DNA from: Minisyncoccota bacterium
Lineage (GTDB): Bacteria; Patescibacteriota; Minisyncoccia; UBA6257; 1-14-0-10-44-23
NCBI GenBank assembly: GCA_041389085.1
Contig: JAWKSL010000001.1
Location: 34,921-98,920 of the forward strand
Length of the DNA stretch: 64,000 bases
Direction of reading: 5' to 3'
The position numbers and the translations under genes were made by a program. Under the pieces are notes generated by a model. The model made no database searches and had not been told where the DNA came from. It worked only from the letters and a program-made list of their open reading frames with translations. The number at the start of each line of letters is the position of its first letter. Positions within the stretch are counted from its first letter, which is position 1. Shown in pieces: positions 1-63,461 of this stretch.

Positions 1-1836
1 CTTTCTTATGTTTTCTTGAGCGGCCTTTTGAGCAGCCTGCCAGACTTCGCCAAGCACTGCGCTGGCGTCTATTACTTGGTCTCTTTCTTGGCCTAACTGG
101 GCTAAAAGCTGGCGTTCTACCTCAACTATTTGCTCACTGCTATGTACTCTCTCAAGAGCCTCTTTTTCGCGCCTCTGATAGCCTTCTAAGCGGCTTCTGC
201 CCTCTTCTCTTGTGAGATCTAGGGCTTTGCCCATAACGCCCTTAAAACCGCTTAAAACGGCCCTTATCGGCCTGCTGTGGCTGTCTCCAAACTCGTTGTC
301 TACTTGCGTATATGCGCTCCTAAATCCGTAGAGGAAGGCGCCTGCATAAGTGCGCTTGGCTACAAGCTCTTCGCGCGTCTCTTTTCTCTTTTCTCTCTCT
401 GCCTTTGCTGCGTCTCCCGCTTCTTGGCCTTTTGTTTTCTGCTGCTCTATCGTCTCCTCCTTTTCGGCTATACTCTGACGAGTACGCTCAAGCTCGTTGG
501 CTAGGAAGTAGTTTTCTCCTATGCTCTCAATGTCTTCTATGGCCTGTTTTTGGAATTTGATAACGAGCTGCTTTTCTAGCCCTTTTTCAATTTCTGCTCC
601 GTGTTCAACTTTAAATATATCCCTTGCATTTGCTACGAAGGCCTTAGCTAGCTCTGGCGCATTCTTATAGGCTACCCAAGAGCGCACCATCTGCTCGCTA
701 TGATCTATATCTGGACTTGTTTCATAGTGAGCTGAAAATGCCCCTACAAAGCCTTTATCTGCTAGCGCTTGATCGAGAAGCTTTTGTTCCTCTGTTTTTG
801 ACTGCTCTCTTCTTACCTGCTCAATTCTTTCCTGAACGTAGGTTATGCTGTCACTATCTCTTCGCCCTTCGTCAACTACTTCTAGAGAGTCATTAAATGC
901 TTCTTTTTCAGTAACCTCACCCTTTTCGAGGGCCTCCATAATTTGGTCTACCCTTCCTCTTTGCTCCTCTGTAAGAGGTATATCTCTGCTTTCCTGAACC
1001 GACTCTTCTGTCTTTTCTGGAGCCTCTATCCTTACTCTCTGAGGTTCTTTTCCCTCTAAGTCCTCTACCTTGAACTGTGTATTCTCTGCGCTTTCTTGTT
1101 CTTTCTTTTGCTCAATCTCCCTCTCTTTATCTGCTTCTTCCGGTATCTCCTGCTCTTCGAAGTGCTGATCTTCGTCCTTTTGCGTTGGCTCGTAGTCTAA
1201 AATATTTGTTACTATCTCGCTAAATCTCCTCTGCACGGGCATTGCGATTTTATCAACCTGAGCCTTGCTTAGACCCTCTTTTTCCGACAGGGTGTCTTTT
1301 GCTTCCTTAAGAATTTCTCTAAAACGCTCCTGGGCTTCTGTTTCATTTATTCTTTCTACTTCTAGCTCATCAAAAATTTCCCCAACACCTGCTTTTAGTG
1401 CATCTCTGAGTTCGTCTTTGTACCTTGAGAATTCTTTGCTTGATAAAGCCTTCCGTTTCACCGCAGCTTCTGGCTGCTCCGGAGTAATTTTCTGATAGGC
1501 TCTCTCTGCACGCTTAAAATCACTTTTGAATGATGTGACTATTTTCTCTGCATCTTCATCGCTGCACTTTCCCTCAAGAAGTCGCTTCACGTAGTCAGGT
1601 AGCTCAGCAATGAACCGCCCTGCCTCTTCTTTGGAAATTGCCCCTTTTTCGCAATCTGAATGAACCTCCCTAATGTGCACGTTTAGAGCCTTTCTTGTTT
1701 CTGCCCTTAATGCACTTACCTCGGGCGATCTTTCACGTTCTAAAATTTTTCTAGCAGCACTGAGCTTTTCTTCACTGATCTGATCTACATCTCCTGCAGC
1801 ATCTTGTATTTGCGCTAATTCTCCGCTTTTCTCCAT
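1..1836 (-). CDS. Large acidic, Glu/Lys-rich alpha-helical hypothetical protein. Its 5' part lies in the window (ATG at 1836) and it runs off the window start.
   Basis: Open minus-strand frame from ATG 1836 (MEKSGELAQIQ...) to position 1 with no stop codon. It is absent from the ORF track only because it is truncated. No recognisable catalytic motif. Confidence 0.5.
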   Translation of the reverse strand, partial: MEKSGELAQIQDAAGDVDQISEEKLSAARKILERERSPEVSALRAETRKALNVHIREVHSDCEKGAISKEEAGRFIAELPDYVKRLLEGKCSDEDAEKIVTSFKSDFKRAERAYQKITPEQPEAAVKRKALSSKEFSRYKDELRDALKAGVGEIFDELEVERINETEAQERFREILKEAKDTLSEKEGLSKAQVDKIAMPVQRRFSEIVTNILDYEPTQKDEDQHFEEQEIPEEADKEREIEQKKEQESAENTQFKVEDLEGKEPQRVRIEAPEKTEESVQESRDIPLTEEQRGRVDQIMEALEKGEVTEKEAFNDSLEVVDEGRRDSDSITYVQERIEQVRREQSKTEEQKLLDQALADKGFVGAFSAHYETSPDIDHSEQMVRSWVAYKNAPELAKAFVANARDIFKVEHGAEIEKGLEKQLVIKFQKQAIEDIESIGENYFLANELERTRQSIAEKEETIEQQKTKGQEAGDAAKAEREKRKETREELVAKRTYAGAFLYGFRSAYTQVDNEFGDSHSRPIRAVLSGFKGVMGKALDLTREEGRSRLEGYQRREKEALERVHSSEQIVEVERQLLAQLGQERDQVIDASAVLGEVWQAAQKAAQENIRK

Positions 1837-1976
1837 AAAAGCATTATACCTTAGAACTAGATTTTAGAGGCTCGATTTTAGACGTTGGAATAGCGCTCAA
1901 ACAAAACACTACAACAAATCCGGCCGGATATGATATAGTGCTTTTCTTGATTTGGCGGCTCCTGAGCGTACGCCCG

Positions 1977-2026
1977 CCCAGAACTTTAACGGCTCACACG
2001 TACGTGTGAGCCGTTAAAGTTCTGGG
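1977..2026. repeat. Perfect 50-bp palindrome (core 40 bp aactttaacggctcacacgt/acgtgtgagccgttaaagtt). Repeat family copy I, downstream of rpsR.
   Basis: Read directly: X + revcomp(X) with no mismatches. The same 40-mer recurs at 21909-21948 and 51622-51661. Confidence 0.85.
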
Positions 2027-2080
2027 CTAGAACGTAGTATTGATGCGCCCCTGTCCGTGTGAGGCGTTTAAATCAAATGC

Positions 2081-2290
2081 CTATCGGGTGGTGAATGGAA
2101 GAAGAGCCATGTGGCGAGCGCGCTTGATAGCTACTGCCAATTGACGCTGGTATTTTGCACTGGTGCCGGTGTACTTTGGGTCGATTATCTTCCCTTGTGC
2201 AGAAACGAAACGCTTAAGAAGATCGATGTCTTTGTAGTCGATGTACTTTATGTTTTGGCTTCTAAAGTGGCACTGCTTTTGTTTTTTCAT
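2081..2290 (-). CDS. rpsR: 30S ribosomal protein S18
   Basis: 69 aa with a typical S18 sequence (..[28 protein letters not shown]). Conserved rpsF-ssb-rpsR order. Confidence 0.9.
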
Positions 2291-13230: not shown

Positions 13231-13315
13231 ATATGAATTATTTTAGCAGAAAGAAAGACAAGATTTTAGACGTTAGATTTTTGATTTTTGAAGACGCTGA
13301 ACTATACGAAACAGG

Positions 13316-13344
13316 TTTGACATAGCGCCCTTTATGTTTTATAG
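13316..13344 (+). promoter_or_regulatory. Sigma70-like promoter TTGACA-17-TATAGC for GC-rich cassette A
   Basis: Read directly. Equivalent element upstream of cassette B. Confidence 0.5.
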
Positions 13345-13348
13345 CTAT

Positions 13349-13436
13349 AGGAGTTTTTTGAAAGCTATTTGCTCGGTTTTTGGCCGCACGTTTTTGCTCT
13401 TTTTGAGAGTAGAAATGTGCGGCTAAGAGGGCCGCA
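13349..13436 (+). promoter_or_regulatory. Conserved structured leader (copy A), ggagttttttgaa...gccgcacRtttttgctcttttTgagagtagRaatgtgcggctaagagggccgc, with alternative hairpins
   Basis: About 85 % identical to 14197-14269. 9-bp stem GCCGCACAU/AUGUGCGGC. The shared GCGGC can alternatively pair with the downstream GCCGC. Confidence 0.5.
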
Positions 13437-13511
13437 AATATGGGCTACGAACACCTTGGCACGATGCTAAGTTAGTAGATGCCCGATAGACTCCGAAGAA
13501 AGGTTTCTATC

Positions 13512-14078
13512 ATGCAAGGTAAAAAGATCACAATCGATCAGGGCAAGGAAGCTCTTGATCTTCTGAGCCGGCTCAGCCCGGAGCAGTACCAGGAGAGACG
13601 CGCTTGGTTGGCGCGCATTAGCGATCCTCGCTTTAACCCCAACATGCTCAGGCTATTCTACCCCTTCAAGGCTAATCAACCGTTCCAGTGGAACTGCCGC
13701 GGAGTTGAGCGCGAAGGAGCTGTCTGCGAGGCGTCTGTCACCATCGCCGATCTTGAGCTCGTCCCCTTCCACAAGGATGGTGAGAAGTGGATCAGTGGCG
13801 AAGAGATGCGCACTCGCGCTGCCGACGAGGAGGCCTACCCGGGGTGCTCAGGCTTCGGCCAGCACCAGGCCGAGGACATTCTCGAGCGAGCCTCTGAGCT
13901 GCCCGAGGAGTTCCGTAAGTACGTGATCGTCTTCGCGGACTCCGTTCTTTTGGACGGCGTCTGTCATCGATACGTTCCGTTCCTCGCCTGGGATGGCGGC
14001 CGGTGGCAGCTGAACTGGCGCTGGATCGATAGCAGCTTCGAACGCGTCTGCCGATTCCCTCGGCTGCGGCGTGAGTAG
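13512..14078 (+). CDS. Hypothetical protein (188 aa) in high-GC cassette A, distantly related in its C-terminal half to the cassette B protein
   Basis: Long GC3-rich ORF and ATG at 13512 after an AAAGG SD-like site. The ORF-track start at 13479 is an upstream extension. No known domain recognised. Confidence 0.6.
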   Translation: MQGKKITIDQGKEALDLLSRLSPEQYQERRAWLARISDPRFNPNMLRLFYPFKANQPFQWNCRGVEREGAVCEASVTIADLELVPFHKDGEKWISGEEMRTRAADEEAYPGCSGFGQHQAEDILERASELPEEFRKYVIVFADSVLLDGVCHRYVPFLAWDGGRWQLNWRWIDSSFERVCRFPRLRRE

Positions 14079-14096
14079 GAGCCGCCCACAACAATG

Positions 14097-14139
14097 ACCC
14101 CGCGCGATGCAGTGCATCGCGCGGGGTTTGTTCTTTTTT
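14097..14139 (+). terminator. Rho-independent terminator (ccccgcgcgatgcagtgcatcgcgcgggg + tttgttctttttt) of cassette A
   Basis: GC-rich hairpin followed by a T-run. Near-identical to 14950-14989. Confidence 0.8.
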
Positions 14140-14162
14140 ACCGCTCTAGAGATCTGATTGGT

Positions 14163-14191
14163 TTGACTTAAGGTGCTTTATATTTTATAAC
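14163..14191 (+). promoter_or_regulatory. Sigma70-like promoter TTGACT-17-TATAAC for cassette B
   Basis: Read directly. Confidence 0.5.
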
Positions 14192-14196
14192 TATGG

Positions 14197-14269
14197 GAGT
14201 TTTTTGAAGATTTTTGCCGCACATTTTTGCTCTTTTTTGAGAGTAGGAATGTGCGGCTAAGAGGGCCGC
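14197..14269 (+). promoter_or_regulatory. Conserved structured leader (copy B)
   Basis: Matches 13349-13436. Confidence 0.5.
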
Positions 14270-14329
14270 GTTTGAACTGTCTGGGGCTGCATCGGTGTAG
14301 ATGTGGCTGGAGACAGTGGAGCAACAATC

Positions 14330-14926
14330 ATGTCTACAGACACCCGTTTAGATCTTGGAGCCGAACTCGACCGAAAGGTGCGAGAGAAGGGTGGCACGCG
14401 CGAAAATATCGCGCTCGTACTCAGGGAGCGGCCTGACATCATTGATGCTTGTGCCGCCCTGATTGTCGACGCAGCGCGTGAGACGAAGGTCAAGATTGAG
14501 CTCTCGATCGTCGTCGGCGAGGACGAGACTTTCGATAGTCTCGTAGCGGCCGGGCATTACGGCTCGAAGGGCGACTGGGTCACCGGAGAGCAGTTCCCTG
14601 TTCGTCCGAGCCAGCCTGGCGAGCGCCAGCTCGTGCTCTTGCACTTCGCCCGCGTCGTCTCCTCCGAGAATGCAATCGATGAGGCAGCCAAGCAGGGCTT
14701 GGAGCGTCCTACCTACGAAGACGCCTTGCGCTTCGGTGCTCAGCACCCTGAGGTGCAGTGCCAGTTCCCGGTCGTTTTCCTTCATGAACCCCTGCCGGAC
14801 GCGTACGACGGCCCGAGCGTCCTCTGCCTCGATTGTCGCGCCTCGGGGCGCGACCTGGACTACCGCTGGTTCGACGGCGGTTGGGGTTGCCTCTACCGCT
14901 TCGTCTTCGTCCGCCCTACAGCGTGA
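14330..14926 (+). CDS. Hypothetical protein (198 aa) in high-GC cassette B
   Basis: GC3-rich ORF with ATG at 14330 and GGAG 9 nt upstream. The 3' end and terminator module are shared with cassette A (gcgtgagtaggagccgNccacaacaatgacccc...). Confidence 0.6.
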   Translation: MSTDTRLDLGAELDRKVREKGGTRENIALVLRERPDIIDACAALIVDAARETKVKIELSIVVGEDETFDSLVAAGHYGSKGDWVTGEQFPVRPSQPGERQLVLLHFARVVSSENAIDEAAKQGLERPTYEDALRFGAQHPEVQCQFPVVFLHEPLPDAYDGPSVLCLDCRASGRDLDYRWFDGGWGCLYRFVFVRPTA

Positions 14927-14949
14927 GTAGGAGCCGACCACAACAATGA

Positions 14950-14989
14950 CCCCGCGCGATGCAGTGCCTCGCGCGGGGTTTGTTCTTTG
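14950..14989 (+). terminator. Rho-independent terminator of cassette B (one-base variant of the cassette A terminator)
   Basis: Hairpin plus T-run. Confidence 0.8.
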
Positions 14990-14992
14990 CTG

Positions 14993-15024
14993 CTCTAGAG
15001 TTATCTCTAGAGATAACTCTAGAG
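14993..15024. repeat. Perfect 32-bp palindrome ctctagagttatctctagagataactctagag between cassette B and the mraY stop
   Basis: Read directly. Related CTCTAGAG-containing palindromes lie at 14147-14160 and 62196-62215. Confidence 0.7.
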
Positions 15025-20971: not shown

Positions 20972-21835
20972 ATGAATTCCTCAAAAGATACTCACGAATT
21001 TGAAGCTATAAAAAAGAACCGCCACGTTGAAGTTGAGTATCCTCCTGAGCTTCTTGCCCCAATCCAGAGAAATACCCAAGCATGGAGCGATCTTTGCGCT
21101 CTCAGCCCAGAGATTAAGCAAAAGCTTCGTTTCGTTGAAGATCCTCGCTACCTTGACGGCGAAGGATACGAACTTAAAACAACCCCAGGAGACAACCTCG
21201 ATCTTAAAGAGAACTTTCACTTCACCCTCAGTGCCTACGAAAGACTTGCCGAGAGTGCCAAAGCACATCCGGTACTTCAAGAGTTTATTGAAAGCTCCCG
21301 GTCATTAATTGAGAGCTCGGCTGAGCGCATTGTTGCCTTTGCTTCCGAGCTTGAGATTTCTGGTAACATGCCGGGGTTAGCTGATGAAGTTGCGAGTGGC
21401 AAGAACCGCTGGATCCTTAGAAACCTTCACTACTTTCCTGGGCACGACCAAGACATCGTTGCTGGAGCACATACCGACAAAGCTGGCTTCACTCTCCACC
21501 TTTTTGAAGACAAGCCTGGGCTTGAATTTTACGATGGAGTAAACTGGCAGCCTTTTCCTACTGGGCCTGGTCACACCGTTATCTTGCCAGATATACAAAT
21601 GCAGTACCGAAGTGGTGGGCTCATTGAAGCCACATGGCACCGCGTAGTCGCAAACGCTGACGTTAAGGCTCAGGGGCGTAAGTCTGCTGTAATGTTTATC
21701 CCTTTTCACAAGACTCCATACTTCGACAAAGTACGCTTCGGACGACAGCAAGACCTCCCTCTTGGGTTTAACTACGGTATGCCGTTTGAGAAGTTTAGAG
21801 AAATGTTCCGGGACTCTCCTTTTCAAGAAGGATAA
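20972..21835 (+). CDS. 2OG-Fe(II) oxygenase superfamily protein (isopenicillin-N-synthase-like)
   Basis: HTD...H facial triad candidates (AHTDKAG..., WHRV) and double-stranded beta-helix-like pattern. Family-level only. Confidence 0.5.
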   Translation: MNSSKDTHEFEAIKKNRHVEVEYPPELLAPIQRNTQAWSDLCALSPEIKQKLRFVEDPRYLDGEGYELKTTPGDNLDLKENFHFTLSAYERLAESAKAHPVLQEFIESSRSLIESSAERIVAFASELEISGNMPGLADEVASGKNRWILRNLHYFPGHDQDIVAGAHTDKAGFTLHLFEDKPGLEFYDGVNWQPFPTGPGHTVILPDIQMQYRSGGLIEATWHRVVANADVKAQGRKSAVMFIPFHKTPYFDKVRFGRQQDLPLGFNYGMPFEKFREMFRDSPFQEG

Positions 21836-21865
21836 GTAATATAAGAAATATCGATCGCGAAGCTA

Positions 21866-22000
21866 AATGGCCGTGCCTACGGCAGATAAACTCACACATA
21901 TCGCCTTCAACTTTAACGGCTCACACGTACGTGTGAGCCGTTAAAGTTCTAGTCTAGGATGTAGTATCCATGCGCCCCTTTCCGTGTGAGGCGTTTGTGG
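21866..22000. repeat. Mosaic repeat copy II: small hairpin + aaactcacac + 40-bp perfect palindrome (21909-21948) + conserved tail ...gtagtatccatgcgcccctttccgtgtgaggcgttt
   Basis: Palindrome identical to copy I. The tail matches 2022-2072. The head (ggccgtgcctacggcagataaactcacac) matches 51524-51552. It sits between convergent genes (bidirectional terminator position). Confidence 0.8.
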
Positions 22001-22018: not shown

Positions 22019-22441
22019 TTATTTGCGTCTGAGCCAACGCTTCCCTTTTCCTGGGAAACCGTAGAAAGCGAGGAGTGCAAGTGGAGCGCCCCAGTTTGCC
22101 CAACGCTCAAAGAAGTCCCAAATTGGATCAGGGCCAATTGGCCACCTGATCATGGCAGTCCAGAGACCCCATAGAGCCATCCATGCAAGAGCGAGTCTGA
22201 ATGGTACAAAAAGAACAATGATCGCAAGCAATATATCCATAACGCCAATGTATGGCATTAGGGTGTTTGCGGTGGCATCTGATATACCTACAGAGTTGAA
22301 GTACTTTAACCACCCTGCTTTTTGCTGGAGAGCAAAGACTCCGTGTCCCAAGAACTCTCCAAATATACCAATCCTTAGAGCCCACTCAATTACTTTCTTG
22401 TTCATTTTTTTTAAGAAAAAATTATTGACCCCGAGGCTCAC
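22019..22441 (-). CDS. Small polytopic membrane protein (DoxX-like, low confidence)
   Basis: Three or four TM helices. No catalytic motif. Confidence 0.45.
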   Translation of the reverse strand: MSLGVNNFFLKKMNKKVIEWALRIGIFGEFLGHGVFALQQKAGWLKYFNSVGISDATANTLMPYIGVMDILLAIIVLFVPFRLALAWMALWGLWTAMIRWPIGPDPIWDFFERWANWGAPLALLAFYGFPGKGKRWLRRK

Positions 22442-34447: not shown

Positions 34448-34478
34448 CTAAAAAGCGCCCCTTGCGGGGCGCTTTTAT
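34448..34478. terminator. Bidirectional rho-independent terminator aaaagcgccccttgcggggcgcttttatttt
   Basis: GC hairpin flanked by A-run and T-run, between convergent genes. Confidence 0.8.
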
Positions 34479-37073: not shown

Positions 37074-37111
37074 ATATTAGCATATAAGTTTGTATTTGTC
37101 AATAGATAACT

Positions 37112-37137
37112 AAAAAGCACCCGAAAGGGTGCTTTTT
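37112..37137. terminator. Bidirectional terminator aaaaagcacccgaaagggtgcttttt
   Basis: Read directly. Confidence 0.8.
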
Positions 37138-37225
37138 AGAATCTCGTGTAAGAATGGCTTTTAGCCTGTCTTTATCTCTCGATAAACTCGAGATGAGACG
37201 TCGGCTTTAACCAATCTCAACCCTT

Positions 37226-38932: not shown

Positions 38933-39270
38933 TAGTAGCAGGGCAACTACTCTAGATTGTTTACATTCTAGGGAGGAAAGTCCGGACTCCCTTTCCCCTT
39001 TCGGGGTCAAAAATGTAGTAGCTAACAGCTATCACAGGTGACTGAGAGATGCGAGCAGAGACGCTGGCGCAGAAATGCTGCCAGGACCCTTATCTCAAGC
39101 TAAACGGGTCAATCCAGCCATAGAGACAAGAAAGCTGGGGTGAAACGGCTAAATTCTTACAGGGTGCAAGGCCGTGTCCCGCTTTGCGGGAAGTGCCGCT
39201 TGAGGGCTGTGGCGACACAGCTCCTAGGTAAATTGTTGCCAAGAACAGAATCCGGCTTACTCGCTACTAA
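38933..39270 (+). ncRNA. rnpB: RNase P RNA (bacterial type A)
   Basis: P4 halves GAGGAAAGUCCGG (38974-38986) and ACAGAAUCCGGCUUAC (39244-39259). P1 pairing AGUAGC../..GCUACU. Followed by a terminator. Confidence 0.85.
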
Positions 39271-39273
39271 CTA

Positions 39274-39297
39274 AAAAGCCCCTTTCGGGGTTTTTTA
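39274..39297. terminator. Bidirectional terminator aaaaagcccctttcggggtttttt
   Basis: Read directly. Serves rnpB (+) and the DHH gene (-). Confidence 0.8.
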
Positions 39298-40143
39298 GTT
39301 TTTATACTTCCACGGAAAGGGCTTATTTATGTGCCAGTGAAATCCGGCCGAATACCGGTGCCCTCCCCCGCCATATTTCTTGGCTATTTTCATAACGTCT
39401 GCTTTTGTGCCCACTTTTGCTCTTAGGCTCACTTTTGGTCTTCCTTCGTCTAAGTAAACTACGACGGCAATGTTCCCAGGGAATGCTTCGTAGAGCGCTG
39501 CACCGATGTGTGTGCGGAGCGCTGAAATTCCGTATGTAAAGCGAGCTTTCTGGCCTTCGAAAATTATTGGCACACTGCTTTCTACGGCAGAGTGTACAAT
39601 ATTGCTTTCTCGGGCAAGAATTTTCTGGCCCTCCTTTTCATATTGTTTAAGCTTTTTCTTATCTTCAAAGGCTCTAATAAGCTTTGGCACATCATCGAGT
39701 GACTTAAGCTCCAGGCTTGCAGATGCAAGAGTGCCTATTTGCCCCTCTGTTTGCTTTTGCCAAAGATCACTTTTTTGAACTTGGCTTACGAACTTTGGCA
39801 TTTTCTTTTTTGGGAAGAAATATTTCCACGCTAAACCTGCACCAGAATAGTTCAGGTTATAGACTCCCTTTTTGTGAACCTTAAACTGCTCTGCTGCAGT
39901 TGGATGGTGGTCGAGGATAAAAACTTCGTTGCTTTTATGTATCTCTACAAAGTCCTTGAGTAGCGGAACAGCGTCTATGAAAAATATGGTTTTATTTCTT
40001 AGCTTCTTAAAACCAGTGTAGGTAAAAGGCATTGGCACATACTCTGCCTTGTTTTTGAGTGCCATTTTTGCGATACCAGCTCCTACAAAACCGTCTCTGC
40101 AGCCCTTGTGGTAGTACACTACTATTTTCTTCTCTGTCTTCAT
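39295..40143 (-). CDS. DHH/DHHA1 phosphoesterase (NrnA-like oligoribonuclease/pAp phosphatase)
   Basis: ILDHH motif and DHHA1 GGGGH motif. Confidence 0.75.
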   Translation of the reverse strand: MKTEKKIVVYYHKGCRDGFVGAGIAKMALKNKAEYVPMPFTYTGFKKLRNKTIFFIDAVPLLKDFVEIHKSNEVFILDHHPTAAEQFKVHKKGVYNLNYSGAGLAWKYFFPKKKMPKFVSQVQKSDLWQKQTEGQIGTLASASLELKSLDDVPKLIRAFEDKKKLKQYEKEGQKILARESNIVHSAVESSVPIIFEGQKARFTYGISALRTHIGAALYEAFPGNIAVVVYLDEGRPKVSLRAKVGTKADVMKIAKKYGGGGHRYSAGFHWHINKPFPWKYKN

Positions 40144-41253: not shown

Positions 41254-41317
41254 ATTGTCTAATAATAACGCAAAAGCCCCAACGTGTGGGGCTTTTTGTA
41301 TACACAGATTTTTCTTT

Positions 41318-50732: not shown

Positions 50733-50752
50733 ATTAAAAAAGATATTAGATT

Positions 50753-51346
50753 TTAGACGTTAGATTTTTGATCTGCTTCTTCAACCTTCTCGTCTTTTTT
50801 CTCTTTTGTTTTTTCTGCTTCGCTTGGTTGTGCTGGTGATTGTTCTGTCTCAGCGCCTTCTGGATTTTCTTCACCTACCTCTTGAGTCTGAACACTTACC
50901 TCTATCTCAGATGGTCCTTCAAGGTCGGCAAAAAGCTCAACTTCGCGCCCTACTATTCCTGGTGCGCTTCCGTGAAGCATTACAATCTTGTTTTCTGCGT
51001 CTATTTCAGCAATTTTAATACCCTTGTAAGTAATGGTTTCCATACCGTAGCGTCCTCCCATTTTTCGTCCTGGGACTACGCGAGCCATTTGCTTGCTTCC
51101 GATAGAACCTGGTGCGCGGTGGTAGTGCTTCTGACCGTGAGTCTTTGGCCCTCCGCGGAAGTTCCAACGCTTAATAACGCTCGCAAATCCGTGTCCTTTA
51201 GACTTTCCGGTTACTTTGAGCGGCATTCCAGCCTCTACACCTTCAAGGTTTGCTTTTTCTGAAAGCTTAATAGGGGTGACACCAAGGGCGCTCCCATCCT
51301 TAAAGATTTGAGTCATTTTTAGCTTTTTTCCAGTAAGTTTTCGCAT
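50753..51346 (-). CDS. rplC: 50S ribosomal protein L3 with an acidic C-terminal extension
   Basis: N-terminus MRKLTGKKLKMTQIF matches the L3 consensus. Confidence 0.92.
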   Translation of the reverse strand: MRKLTGKKLKMTQIFKDGSALGVTPIKLSEKANLEGVEAGMPLKVTGKSKGHGFASVIKRWNFRGGPKTHGQKHYHRAPGSIGSKQMARVVPGRKMGGRYGMETITYKGIKIAEIDAENKIVMLHGSAPGIVGREVELFADLEGPSEIEVSVQTQEVGEENPEGAETEQSPAQPSEAEKTKEKKDEKVEEADQKSNV

Positions 51347-51474
51347 CTTTCGATGAATATCTCAGCTATCTATTCAGCTGTGATTTTATCTCGGGTATTA
51401 GAGCCACCGAGCTTGGGCTTGAACAAAAATAGCTATCCAGAGGACTGGATACCTATTCCAATTCCGTAGCGAGT

Positions 51475-51502
51475 ATTATACACACCCTCAAAAATAATGC
51501 AA
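51475..51502 (-). promoter_or_regulatory. Promoter TTGCAT-16-(TGTG)TATAAT (extended -10) upstream of rplC, inside the rpsJ-rplC insert
   Basis: Read directly on the minus strand. Confidence 0.5.
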
Positions 51503-51519
51503 GCCCCCTACTGACTTTA

Positions 51520-51661
51520 ACGGCCATGCCCGCGGCAGGTAAACTCACACTGAACGCCAAGGAAGTACCGAATCTCGAAACTTTAACGGCTCACAAACGC
51601 CAAGGAAGTACCGAATCTCGAAACTTTAACGGCTCACACGTACGTGTGAGCCGTTAAAGTT
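51520..51661. repeat. Mosaic repeat copy III: head ggccatgcccgcggcaggtaaactcacac, a 43-bp tandem duplication (51553-51595 / 51596-51638) and the 40-bp perfect palindrome (51622-51661)
   Basis: Palindrome identical to copies I and II. Tandem duplication read directly. Confidence 0.8.
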
Positions 51662-51745
51662 GGCTAGGCATCCCCAGTCTTGGCTGTCTTTCGCCCCTTC
51701 GGGGCTCAAGACGAAGACTGTGAAGCCGTTAAAGTCCCCTGCCGA

Positions 51746-51773
51746 GGCACCAAAAAGCCGCCCTTTCGGGCGG
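51746..51773 (-). terminator. Rho-independent terminator directly after rpsJ (gccgcccgaaagggcggc + UUUUU on the minus strand)
   Basis: Read directly. Separates rpsJ from rplC. Confidence 0.7.
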
Positions 51774-51803
51774 CTTTGTATGCTTCTTAGCCTGGCAGAG
51801 GCT

Positions 51804-53388: not shown

Positions 53389-53482
53389 ATTTTTTTAATT
53401 AATTTACTTTATTTTTAATCTGCGAACAATTTTAAAGTCTTGTTATTCTATATAACTTGACTGCTTTGTCAATAAACCTTTT

Positions 53483-62168: not shown

Positions 62169-62189
62169 GAACTTATAAAACGATCTAAC

Positions 62190-62221
62190 AAAAAACTCTA
62201 GAGTTAACTCTAGAGTTTTTT
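62190..62221. terminator. Bidirectional terminator aaaaaaCTCTAGAGTTAACTCTAGAGtttttt
   Basis: Perfect 10-bp stem flanked by an A-run and a T-run between convergent genes. Confidence 0.8.
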
Positions 62222-62222
62222 G

Positions 62223-63461
62223 TTACGCGCTTATCTTTGGATCTTTTTTCGAGAAAACTGTGATTGATCTGTTTTCTTTTTTGAATATCTCCTTCGCTAA
62301 ACTCATCACCTTCTCTGGTTTTATATTTTTTAGCTCTTTGAGGAATTTCTCACCTGTCGCTCCCCTTCCATGAATTGCAATATTTTTGTACCACCAAATT
62401 CTTTCTGTAATGTCTGTATCATCCGAAAGCGTAGATGTGGTTAATGAGTTTTTGTGGTTTTCGAGCTCACCTTTGTTGAGATCTTTCTTTATTTTTTCTA
62501 GCTCTTGATTTATGAGGCTTATAGCTTTCTCTGCATTCTTGTTTTCAGCACTAAACCTAAATAAAACTGTTGATACATCAGCATACATGTCGAAATAGTC
62601 ACTTACCCAATAGGTTAGATTCTCTTCTATGCGAAGCTTTTTGTTCAATCTGCCAATCCAACTTCCTGCTAGCGCGCTCATTAGGGTTGCTGTAAGGACC
62701 TGCTTTTCTACCTCCTTTATCTGAGGCATTCTAAAGCTCACTGCGATTATCGAATTGCTAATATCTTTTTTTACAAATGAATATGCCTTTGGCTCTTTAA
62801 ACTTTTCCTTCCTTGCTTTTAAGGCTTTCCCCTTTATTACTCCTGCTGTTAGCTTTTCTAGCTCCTTTTCTATTTTCTTTTGATTGAAGTTTCCTGTTAT
62901 TACAAACACCGTGTTTGAGAGGGTGTAGTACCTTTTATACCAATCCTGAATATCCTTCTTGCTTATCGCGCGGATACTTTTTTTACTCCCGAGAACACTT
63001 CTAAACGATGACATTGGAAATAAATTCTCCAATGCAACTTCTGCTATCTGATCCTCTGGAGAATTTTCTCTGCTCGCTTGCTCGTCGATTATCGCCCCTG
63101 CCTCCTCTCTTACGTCTTGCTCTGTAAATTCACTGCTAAACATTCCATCTACAAAGACCTCTAGTGATTCACTTGTAGCCTCTTTTCTTTGAAGGTGATA
63201 GTAGTAGCTGTATTCGCTTCCAGTGTATGCGTTAAATTGAATTCCCTTTTCTGCAAGAAAATTAAGCCTATCTTGATAGATTGGAAACATTTTTGTTTTT
63301 TTCATGAGCACGTGCTCAAAGAAATGAGCTAATCCCTCTTTCCCTTTTATATCTTCGCGTGCTCCTACATTTACCCACGCAGAAATAAGCGAAAGCTTTT
63401 CACTTGGCTCGTTTACAAAAATTACTCTTGCACCTGATTTTAATGTTTTTTCGTTTTTCAT
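62223..63461 (-). CDS. Peptidase M16 family protein (second copy). Start at ATG 63461; the ORF-track N-terminal extension through the GC-rich segment is rejected.
   Basis: HFFEH (HxxEH) motif. The N-terminus MKNEKTLKSGARVIFVNEP.. is M16-typical. Confidence 0.75.
   Translation of the reverse strand: MKNEKTLKSGARVIFVNEPSEKLSLISAWVNVGAREDIKGKEGLAHFFEHVLMKKTKMFPIYQDRLNFLAEKGIQFNAYTGSEYSYYYHLQRKEATSESLEVFVDGMFSSEFTEQDVREEAGAIIDEQASRENSPEDQIAEVALENLFPMSSFRSVLGSKKSIRAISKKDIQDWYKRYYTLSNTVFVITGNFNQKKIEKELEKLTAGVIKGKALKARKEKFKEPKAYSFVKKDISNSIIAVSFRMPQIKEVEKQVLTATLMSALAGSWIGRLNKKLRIEENLTYWVSDYFDMYADVSTVLFRFSAENKNAEKAISLINQELEKIKKDLNKGELENHKNSLTTSTLSDDTDITERIWWYKNIAIHGRGATGEKFLKELKNIKPEKVMSLAKEIFKKENRSITVFSKKDPKISA

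Follow-up and report, generated by a model that had tools for sequence, protein, structure and literature searches.

The question addressed here is to what kind of sequence a perfect 40-nt palindrome, AACTTTAACGGCTCACACGTACGTGTGAGCCGTTAAAGTT, belongs, which occurs three times within 64,000 nucleotides of a Minisyncoccota bacterium (assembly GCA_041389085.1, contig JAWKSL010000001.1, positions 34,921 to 98,920 of the forward strand; this whole stretch is referred to as the window). The three occurrences, which had been noticed in an initial sequence-only reading, were located as exact matches at 1982-2021, 21909-21948 and 51622-51661 (copies I, II and III), with an expected number of zero and no occurrence in any of 100 dinucleotide shuffles. 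Allowing up to three mismatches yielded no further match in the window, a profile of the three copies did not reveal a fourth in the 64 kb, and no module copies were found in the window outside the three loci. On balance, and with moderate confidence, we favour the reading that the palindrome is the centre of a lineage-specific, noncoding, mosaic interspersed repeat of the same kind as the repetitive extragenic palindromic sequences and bacterial interspersed mosaic elements (REP/BIME), BOX or SPRITE, which evolves by exchange and slippage and possibly serves as an auxiliary terminator.

The elements are nested. Each reads on the plus strand as an outer-left arm, an ACGCC-bearing linker, the perfect inner palindrome, a CTAG-bearing tail and an outer-right arm, so that the inner palindrome is accompanied by degenerate solo arms, variable linkers, a tail of type A (copies I and II) or type B (copy III) and an optional mini-hairpin (Table 1). 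The nested hairpin of tail B is GTCTT-GA-GCCCC-GAA-GGGGC-GA-AAGAC. The outer arms have inverted orientation; they pair in copy III (12/12 bp and 6 more) and are degenerate in copies I and II, the outer-right arm of copy I matching the inner arm in 14 of 17 positions (3 mismatches). The two mini-hairpins of copy III are mutually inverted, not direct. Between copies I and II the palindrome is identical in 40/40 positions and the adjoining tail in 40/48. The sequence-only reading had described a 5′ head shared by copies II and III, a 3′ tail shared by copies I and II and a 43-nt duplication in copy III, and all were found at the sequence level. The head, however, is really a split extra palindrome arm and not a separate module: it is the outer-left arm, interrupted between GGC and CTCACAC by a mini-hairpin of 19-20 nt (TGCC-NNN-GGCA), and the alignment of the three copies by MAFFT displays the corresponding arm of copy I as unsplit, decayed and free of the mini-hairpin. 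The three loci had been correctly placed, but the extents had to be enlarged for copy I, with a palindrome of 52 nt, and for copy III, which runs past 51661 through a second tail type, an outer arm and an inverted mini-hairpin.

The palindrome can fold as an 18-24-bp hairpin or cruciform. For the 40-mer hairpin the predicted energies were −29 kcal/mol as RNA (z = −8.4) and −19.9 kcal/mol as DNA, and the predicted folds of whole elements were highly stable on both strands (z from −5 to −9), that of copy I reaching −67 kcal/mol as RNA (z = −8.8). As the stem of an intrinsic terminator the hairpin is excellent; the intrinsic-terminator scanner did not call the family palindrome. The elements have no coding capacity.

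All three copies are located in noncoding gaps behind stop codons, in one orientation relative to the upstream minus-strand gene, and the gene contexts proposed beforehand were confirmed, copy I being found 12 nt past the rpsR stop, copy II in a convergent gap and copy III in the rpsJ-rplC spacer. Copy I lies a few bases past the rpsR stop codon (2081-2083, minus strand), with which rpsF-ssb-rpsR ends; the minus-strand gene that comes next encodes a long acidic protein with its ATG near 1836. Copy II lies between the convergent genes of a 2-oxoglutarate (2OG)-Fe(II) oxygenase (ending at 21835) and a DoxX-like protein (stop 22019-22021). Copy III occupies the entire gap from the rplC promoter (−35 at 51497-51502) to the rpsJ terminator. 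Two of the three sites are directly upstream of minus-strand gene promoters. The host is a metagenome-assembled genome of Candidatus Paceibacterota in the candidate phyla radiation (CPR), with Harrisonbacteria as the nearest named relatives by protein matches; L3, SSB and the 2OG oxygenase were 100% matches to NCBI entries (MEZ4156380.1, MEZ4156396.1).

A sister lineage was reached via its proteins in four Logan assemblies (SRR23004066, SRR23004071, SRR23004074 and SRR23004075). L3 and SSB are there 96% and 95% identical to those of the window, the 108-aa S10 is identical, and the DNA of the flanking genes is 87-96% identical. Elements were found at both ribosomal sites, rpsR and rpsJ-rplC, with different modules. 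At site III the comparison was made by joining two contig ends, of which the rpsJ side ends in ...GGGCGGCTTTTTGGTAGCCAGCTAAACGGCTCACACGTACGTGT and the rplC side starts with CCGTTTAGCTTCGCGATTCGGTACTTCCTTAGAGCCGTGTGAGCCGTTAAACTCC..., across 3 inferred nucleotides (GAG). The terminator on one flank and the promoter and leader on the other aligned near-perfectly to the window, and between them the 83-nt block at 51667-51749 (inverted mini-hairpin, outer arm and tail B) and the 20-nt mini-hairpin of the promoter-side arm were missing, and the 43-nt unit was seen once. This minimal sister-lineage element is on one side without an outer arm. The sister contig of site I stops 51 nt past rpsR, inside ...AAATAAACGGCTTCGCAGTCTTCGTCTTGAGCC, after an arm and the first ~16 nt of tail B, where the window has tail A. 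The presence/absence polymorphism that the initial reading had suggested looking for is thus found at the level of modules (83-nt module, 20-nt mini-hairpin and tail swap). The sister contigs stop exactly 30 nt inside conserved boundaries (TAGCCA...; ...TACTTCCTT; AAACGGCTTCGCAG...). Logan graphs are built with k = 31, and such a graph behaves in this way at sequence present more than once; this is indirect evidence, and the sister lineage, too, therefore appears to carry several (two or more) copies. In relatives at 76-78% protein identity (contigs L007, L008 and L011) both sites have different neighbours and lack the element.

Table 1. Features of the repeat family and of the rpsJ-rplC spacer, in window coordinates.
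Feature	Position	Strand	Sequence or remark
Palindrome core, invariant unit			AACGGCTCACACGTACGTGTGAGCCGTT
Arm, 17-18 nt			ACTTTAACGGCTCACAC; three palindromes and extra solo copies, variably degenerate
Repeat-family sequence			CGGCTCACACGTACGTGTGAGCCG
Copy I, whole element	1947-2076	+	closed by TTGATTT (1947-1953) and AAATCAA (2070-2076)
Copy I, outer-left arm, degenerate	1947-1968	+	TTGATTTGGCGGCTCCTGAGCG
Copy I, 52-nt perfect palindrome, family 40-mer inside	1976-2027	.	DNA hairpin −29.8 kcal/mol
Copy I, tail type A	2028-2056	+	TAGAACGTAGTATTGATGCGCCCCTGTCC
Copy I, outer-right arm, then closing AAATCAA	2057-2076	+	GTGTGAGGCGTTTAAAT
Copy I, solo arm	2057-2073
Copy II, whole element	~21862-22000	+
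Copy II, outer-left arm	21862-21897	+	GCTAAATGGC, mini-hairpin 21872-21890 (CGTGCCTACGGCAGATAAA), CTCACAC
Copy II, 40-nt perfect palindrome	21909-21948	.
Copy II, tail type A	21949-21983	+	~83% identity to copy I tail
Copy II, outer-right arm	21984-22000	+	GTGTGAGGCGTTTGTGG
Copy III, whole element	51513-51751	+
Copy III, outer-left arm	51513-51550	+	GACTTTAACGGC, mini-hairpin 51525-51543 (CATGCCCGCGGCAGGTAAA), CTCACAC
Copy III, perfect tandem duplication of 43-nt unit	51553-51595 and 51596-51638	+	26-nt linker and 17 nt of left arm
Copy III, 40-nt perfect palindrome	51622-51661	.
Copy III, 83-nt module	51667-51749	+	tail B with nested hairpins to 51717, outer-right arm, inverted mini-hairpin-like part
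Copy III, outer-right arm in 83-nt module	51718-51736	+	CTGTGAAGCCGTTAAAGTC
Copy III, inverted mini-hairpin-like part of 83-nt module			CCCTGCCGAGGCA
Copy III, solo arms	51514-51524, 51580-51596, 51725-51735
Weaker solo arms	1950-1968, 21862-21871, 21984-22000		direct reading and alignment
Head shared by copies II and III	21869-21897 and 51522-51550
Tail shared by copies I and II	2034-2069 and 21961-21996
rpsJ canonical intrinsic terminator	51752-51777	-	AAAGCCGCCC GAAA GGGCGGCTTTTT; 100% conserved in sister lineage
rplC promoter-like TTGCAT-N16-TATAAT	51475-51502	-	kept in relatives without the element

The sister palindrome at site III consists of the halves AGCTAAACGGCTCACACGT and ACGTGTGAGCCGTTTAGCT. 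Its 28-nt core is the same as in the three window copies, so that the core is found unchanged in four of four palindromes and across ~10% genomic divergence. The distal arms differ between the lineages (AACTTTAACGG/CCGTTAAAGTT versus AGCTAAACGG/CCGTTTAGCT) by two substitutions and one indel, and each of these changes is mirrored on the opposite arm. All four palindromes are perfectly Watson-Crick paired, with no asymmetry of the G-U type. The mirrored changes together with the strict symmetry point to a cause at the DNA level, be it replacement of the whole palindrome, templating from arm to arm or a dimeric binder, and not to selection on an RNA hairpin alone. At the divergence seen in the flanks of copies I and II, the calculated chance of 40 identical bases is ~6e-4.

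From this we infer that the copies may diversify and yet stay alike by DNA-level exchange among copies, through gene conversion or recombination, and that replication slippage, which is also proposed as the origin of the tandem 43-nt unit, would alter them further. Cut-and-paste transposition leaving target-site duplications would play no part; the turnover of modules without such duplications, together with the tandem duplication, indicates a mosaic of the BIME or BOX type and not a cut-and-paste miniature inverted-repeat transposable element (MITE). The repeats would persist only in noncoding gaps behind stop codons, where they do no harm, and their strong symmetric hairpin would probably act as an auxiliary bidirectional barrier to read-through or as an RNA 3′-end hairpin.

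In 185,579 species genomes and 241 million metagenome records, among which the source genome was not included, the 20-nt half-site had no matches other than two that are put down to chance, both within coding regions, and neither this half-site nor the 24-28-nt core common to the sister lineage matched viral contigs. Plasmids and phages gave no match by blastn. With Rfam, searched at E up to 10, no family reached its gathering threshold at the three loci, where only generic and miRNA-hairpin noise was returned far below it. No description of interspersed repeat families or MITEs in CPR/Patescibacteria was found in the literature.

Several points weigh against the reading favoured here. The data comprise just three copies and two sister sites that are covered in part, the 3 nucleotides (GAG) that bridge the sister contigs are presumed, and no donor and recipient pair attests to the proposed exchange among copies. 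Selection acting on the hairpin as such, or on the binding of a dimeric protein to the DNA, would account equally well for the perfect conservation and the mirrored changes. As to the terminator role, the tract 3′ of the GC-rich stem, TTAAAGTT, has T (U) in four of eight positions and is poorer than the A-tracts and T-tracts of the host's usual terminators, and copy III adjoins a canonical terminator; owing to this poor U-tract and this neighbour, a terminator role is put forward tentatively. At sites I and II, where the family palindrome is the sole strong hairpin behind the genes, an auxiliary read-through barrier is nevertheless plausible.

The best surviving alternative, which we still regard as unlikely, makes the element a dedicated regulatory cassette: a portable bidirectional terminator or insulator, its hairpin kept by selection, that was duplicated to the ends of the highly expressed operons rpsF-ssb-rpsR and tuf-rpsJ and between convergent genes. 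The position behind stop codons in three of three cases, the sole strong hairpins at sites I and II, the palindromy preserved by mirrored changes and the retention of both ribosomal sites since the lineages split all agree with it. So does the layout AACTTTAA-GC stem-TTAAAGTT, which resembles the host's AACTAAAAAGCCCC...GGGGTTTTTTAGTT (39269-39300) and the palindrome at 62186-62225, and the sister variant ends in TTTAGCTT, with T in five of eight positions. The U-tract is, however, poor in comparison with canonical host terminators. Copy III, directly behind a perfect canonical terminator and with a promoter in front, is probably little transcribed, and a terminator would be redundant there. 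A cassette of this sort gives no role to the solo arms, tails, mini-hairpin and tandem unit, and a selected RNA hairpin would allow G-U pairs, of which none was seen. The host's bidirectional terminators (62186-62225, 39269-39300 and 51752-51777) are likewise symmetric hairpins behind stops, some of them perfect and of the same length, but its canonical terminators are single-copy with clean A- and T-tracts, whereas the family palindrome is multi-copy with a mixed tract and shared flanking modules.

Terminators of the A-tract/GC-stem/T-tract design are many in this host (for example 34451-34476, 37110-37139, 39269-39300 and 41272-41296). The perfect 40-nt palindrome at 62186-62225, with halves TAACAAAAAACTCTAGAGTT and AACTCTAGAGTTTTTTGTTA, is unrelated to the family and forms a textbook bidirectional terminator between convergent genes.

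A further account, to which we assign a low probability, holds that the palindrome is kept symmetric at the level of DNA, either since it functions in double-stranded or cruciform form, for instance as the site of a lineage-specific dimeric protein, or through hairpin-templated repair copying one arm to the other. Such a protein could organise or segregate the chromosome, or could take part in the uptake of DNA, the CPR host being an episymbiont dependent on imported nucleotides. Both the mirrored sister substitutions and the location of copy III, which is probably untranscribed, accord with this account. Another account, to which we attach little credence, takes the palindrome and the solo arms, at a spacing of 43 nt or ~4 helical turns, as an array of sites for a lineage-specific dimeric protein. 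As candidates one may name a factor of the nucleoid or of segregation, a receptor for uptake signals, or a repressor acting on operons of the translation machinery. The strict Watson-Crick symmetry in four of four palindromes, the core kept across ~10% genome divergence, the mirrored arm changes, the two sites just upstream of minus-strand promoters and the probably untranscribed copy III would all suit such an array. Against it, the convergent genes around copy II leave no promoter to be regulated, the sites are unlike canonical parS, which the window lacks, and the turnover of modules at orthologous sites is unlike a conserved operator. For an uptake sequence, a density of ~1 per 21 kb in intergenic DNA alone falls short.

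A classical MITE is doubtful to the same degree. Here the 17-18-nt arm would be the terminal inverted repeat (TIR) for a transposase encoded elsewhere, and the 40-mer a minimal TIR-TIR element nested in older copies. That inverted arms stand at outer and inner positions, the inner ones pristine and the outer ones decayed, fits this scheme, as do the arm-bearing 83-nt module present at site III and missing in the sister lineage and the small, structured, intergenic nature of the elements. The sequence-only reading had called the family REP/BIME-like or MITE-like and had proposed looking for target-site duplications and transposases of the REP-associated tyrosine transposase (RAYT) or IS200-IS605 type. 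The former label is a fair description of a real mosaic, hairpin-forming intergenic family at gene ends; the latter failed in the tests made on the window and the sister contigs. Direct reading found no target-site duplications at the ends of copies I-III, and none was present at the 83-nt and 20-nt indels, for which the sister lineage supplies the empty state (ambiguity of at most 1 nt). Among 40 open reading frames (ORFs) of the window, Pfam detected no transposase, RAYT (Y1_Tnp), integrase, reverse transcriptase or nuclease domain; their content was housekeeping, envelope and hypothetical proteins. The nesting would moreover require three separate insertions at one homologous internal position. 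The element also lacks AT-richness, and the TIR model does not predict solo arms in direct repeat.

That the minus strand encodes a structured noncoding RNA or is transcribed as a cis-regulatory RNA is very improbable. The very stable folds (z from −5 to −9) and the consistent orientation relative to upstream minus-strand genes would suit an RNA, but Rfam gave sub-threshold generic hairpins only, no promoter or terminator of its own was seen, and copy III has a terminator on its upstream and a promoter on its downstream side, its probably low level of transcription arguing against an RNA gene. Outer stems decay one-sidedly and uncompensated, and orthologous sites differ in module content. Finally, amplification or library artefacts can yield perfect palindromes, but an origin as a chimeric palindrome or by repeat collapse in assembly is effectively refuted, as four sister samples, assembled independently from Illumina data in Logan, show arms, core and linkers again at the same two sites, and the three copies in the window have unique flanks and good gene context.

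Some observations concern the neighbours of the three sites. Sites I and III are synteny breakpoints relative to L007, L008 and L011, in which there is no rpsJ before rplC and rpsR is followed by a PAP2 gene, not by the gene of the acidic protein. Upstream of the ATG of that protein a perfect TATAAT is found at a distance of just 6 nt (1834-1848, minus strand), so that either a leaderless mRNA or a true start codon located further downstream is possible. The 2OG-Fe(II) oxygenase gene adjoining copy II (20972-21835) matched only itself at E<1e-10 in a search of 5.8 billion proteins and could have been acquired recently. The promoter of rplC and the ~150-nt leader (51347-51503, minus strand) are 89-99% identical in relatives (compared in L003 60-240, L007 735-905 and L008 1915-2070), whereas the coding DNA of L3 is only 69-75% identical. 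RNAalifold predicted 37 pairs in this leader, of which six show compensatory changes, and the predicted structure includes a terminator-like hairpin, GGAATAGGTATCCAGTCCTCTGGATAGCTATTTTT; it had no Rfam match, and the leader is a candidate ribosomal-protein autoregulatory leader in Paceibacterota.

Other repeats of the window and of the sister contigs were also recorded. A ~25-nt motif, AGATTTTAGACGTTAGATTTTTGAT on the plus strand, is present at 13250-13285 and 50737-50772 and in a weaker form at 1848-1883, in each case just upstream of a minus-strand gene start, and may be a shared promoter or regulatory motif. Within 13300-15000 a gene pair is duplicated in tandem (13479-14078 and 14303-14926), both genes being without a Pfam match, and their upstream regions and 31-nt GC-rich terminator palindromes are likewise duplicated (repeat families D3, D9, D14 and D17). 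In the fusA-tuf spacer the sister lineage has ~205 extra nucleotides (L012 3362-3598 versus window 53396-53427) which are unrelated to the repeat family and contain a long imperfect inverted repeat, GCAGATTTGATTATTTTC...GAAAATAGCCAAATCTGC. The end of L012 (5199-5219) is the Illumina adapter AGATCGGAAGAGCGTCGTGTA, a technical artefact and no repeat boundary.

The genomes of CPR/Patescibacteria are tiny and streamlined, and the retention of a fast-reshuffling palindromic repeat shows that this class of DNA persists in them. The family provides a strain-typing marker and probably accounts for contig breaks when these lineages are assembled from short reads. Its mirrored arm changes are a small and clean example in which the maintenance of perfect palindromes can be studied.

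Several known kinds of palindromic or repeated site were compared with the family and set aside. No TGTTNCACGTGAAACA-type 16-bp palindrome of parS/ParB was present in the window at up to three mismatches, the family sharing only CACGT..ACGTG with it. Integron attC sites are excluded by the arms CTTTAAC/GTTAAAG, which are wrong in the outermost position relative to RYYYAAC/GTTRRRY, by the bulge-free perfect pairing, by the housekeeping neighbours and by the lack of an integrase in the window. A protelomerase or recombinase site is not in accordance with three chromosomal copies with shared flanks. The appearance of a CRISPR-like array is due to identical 'spacers', which means tandem duplication, and the palindrome-associated transposable elements (PATE) of the IS200/IS605 type are dismissed on the mutual inversion of the two mini-hairpins, which are not direct.

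Among repeat families, the REP/BIME sequences of Proteobacteria consist of extragenic palindromic units and variable linkers at gene 3′ ends and in convergent gaps, without target-site duplication. The present family resembles these and REPIN as a mosaic of palindromic units at gene 3′ ends and between convergent genes that lacks target-site duplications. It differs in that the REP unit is an imperfect palindrome of 20-40 nt with a GTAG/GGAG foot, linked to RAYT (an IS200/IS605-like TnpA), while here the arm has no self-complementarity and two abutting arms make up a perfect palindrome. Membership in REP/REPIN is rejected, since a single arm forms no palindrome and the 40 window ORFs include no RAYT. 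The MITEs Correia/NEMIS of Neisseria, Nezha of cyanobacteria and RUP are similarly small, non-autonomous-looking and intergenic, with inverted-repeat ends and a base-paired fold, but the present elements have no target-site duplication, no matching insertion sequence in the window, no AT-richness, and solo arms in direct orientation.

The SPRITE repeats have an 18-bp duplex, are enriched at the 3′ ends of coding sequences and are proposed to be co-opted terminators (PMC3049150). An 18-bp duplex core, a position near 3′ ends and a proposed terminator co-option recur here, but SPRITE is AT-rich with a long U-rich tract, in place of which the present family has TTAAAGTT or TTTAGCTT, a perfect palindrome and extra arms and tails. 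BOX of Streptococcus pneumoniae (boxA-boxB(n)-boxC) shares the modular, noncoding, intergenic organisation in less than 250 nt, complementary end modules that pair to form a stable stem, the tandem repetition of an internal module (the 43-nt unit or boxB, respectively) and a module content that varies by strain at the same locus, pneumococcal strains differing by gain or loss of tandem boxB modules (PMC3049150). The corresponding BOX-like traits found here are the two tails, the optional mini-hairpin, the doubled 43-nt unit and the module differences at both sister sites. BOX, however, has TIRs and causes target-site duplications, none of the latter being seen here, and is without a perfect central palindrome. 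Its host is a Firmicute and not a CPR bacterium; homology to boxA, boxB or boxC is unexpected given the phylum, and the comparison was made by description. By such likeness the closest analogues are pneumococcal BOX and SPRITE, with the enterobacterial REP/BIME mosaics also close. The current understanding of bacterial repeats is left unchanged by the family, which is a new example of a familiar kind of repeat, apparently restricted to its lineage, and not a new system.

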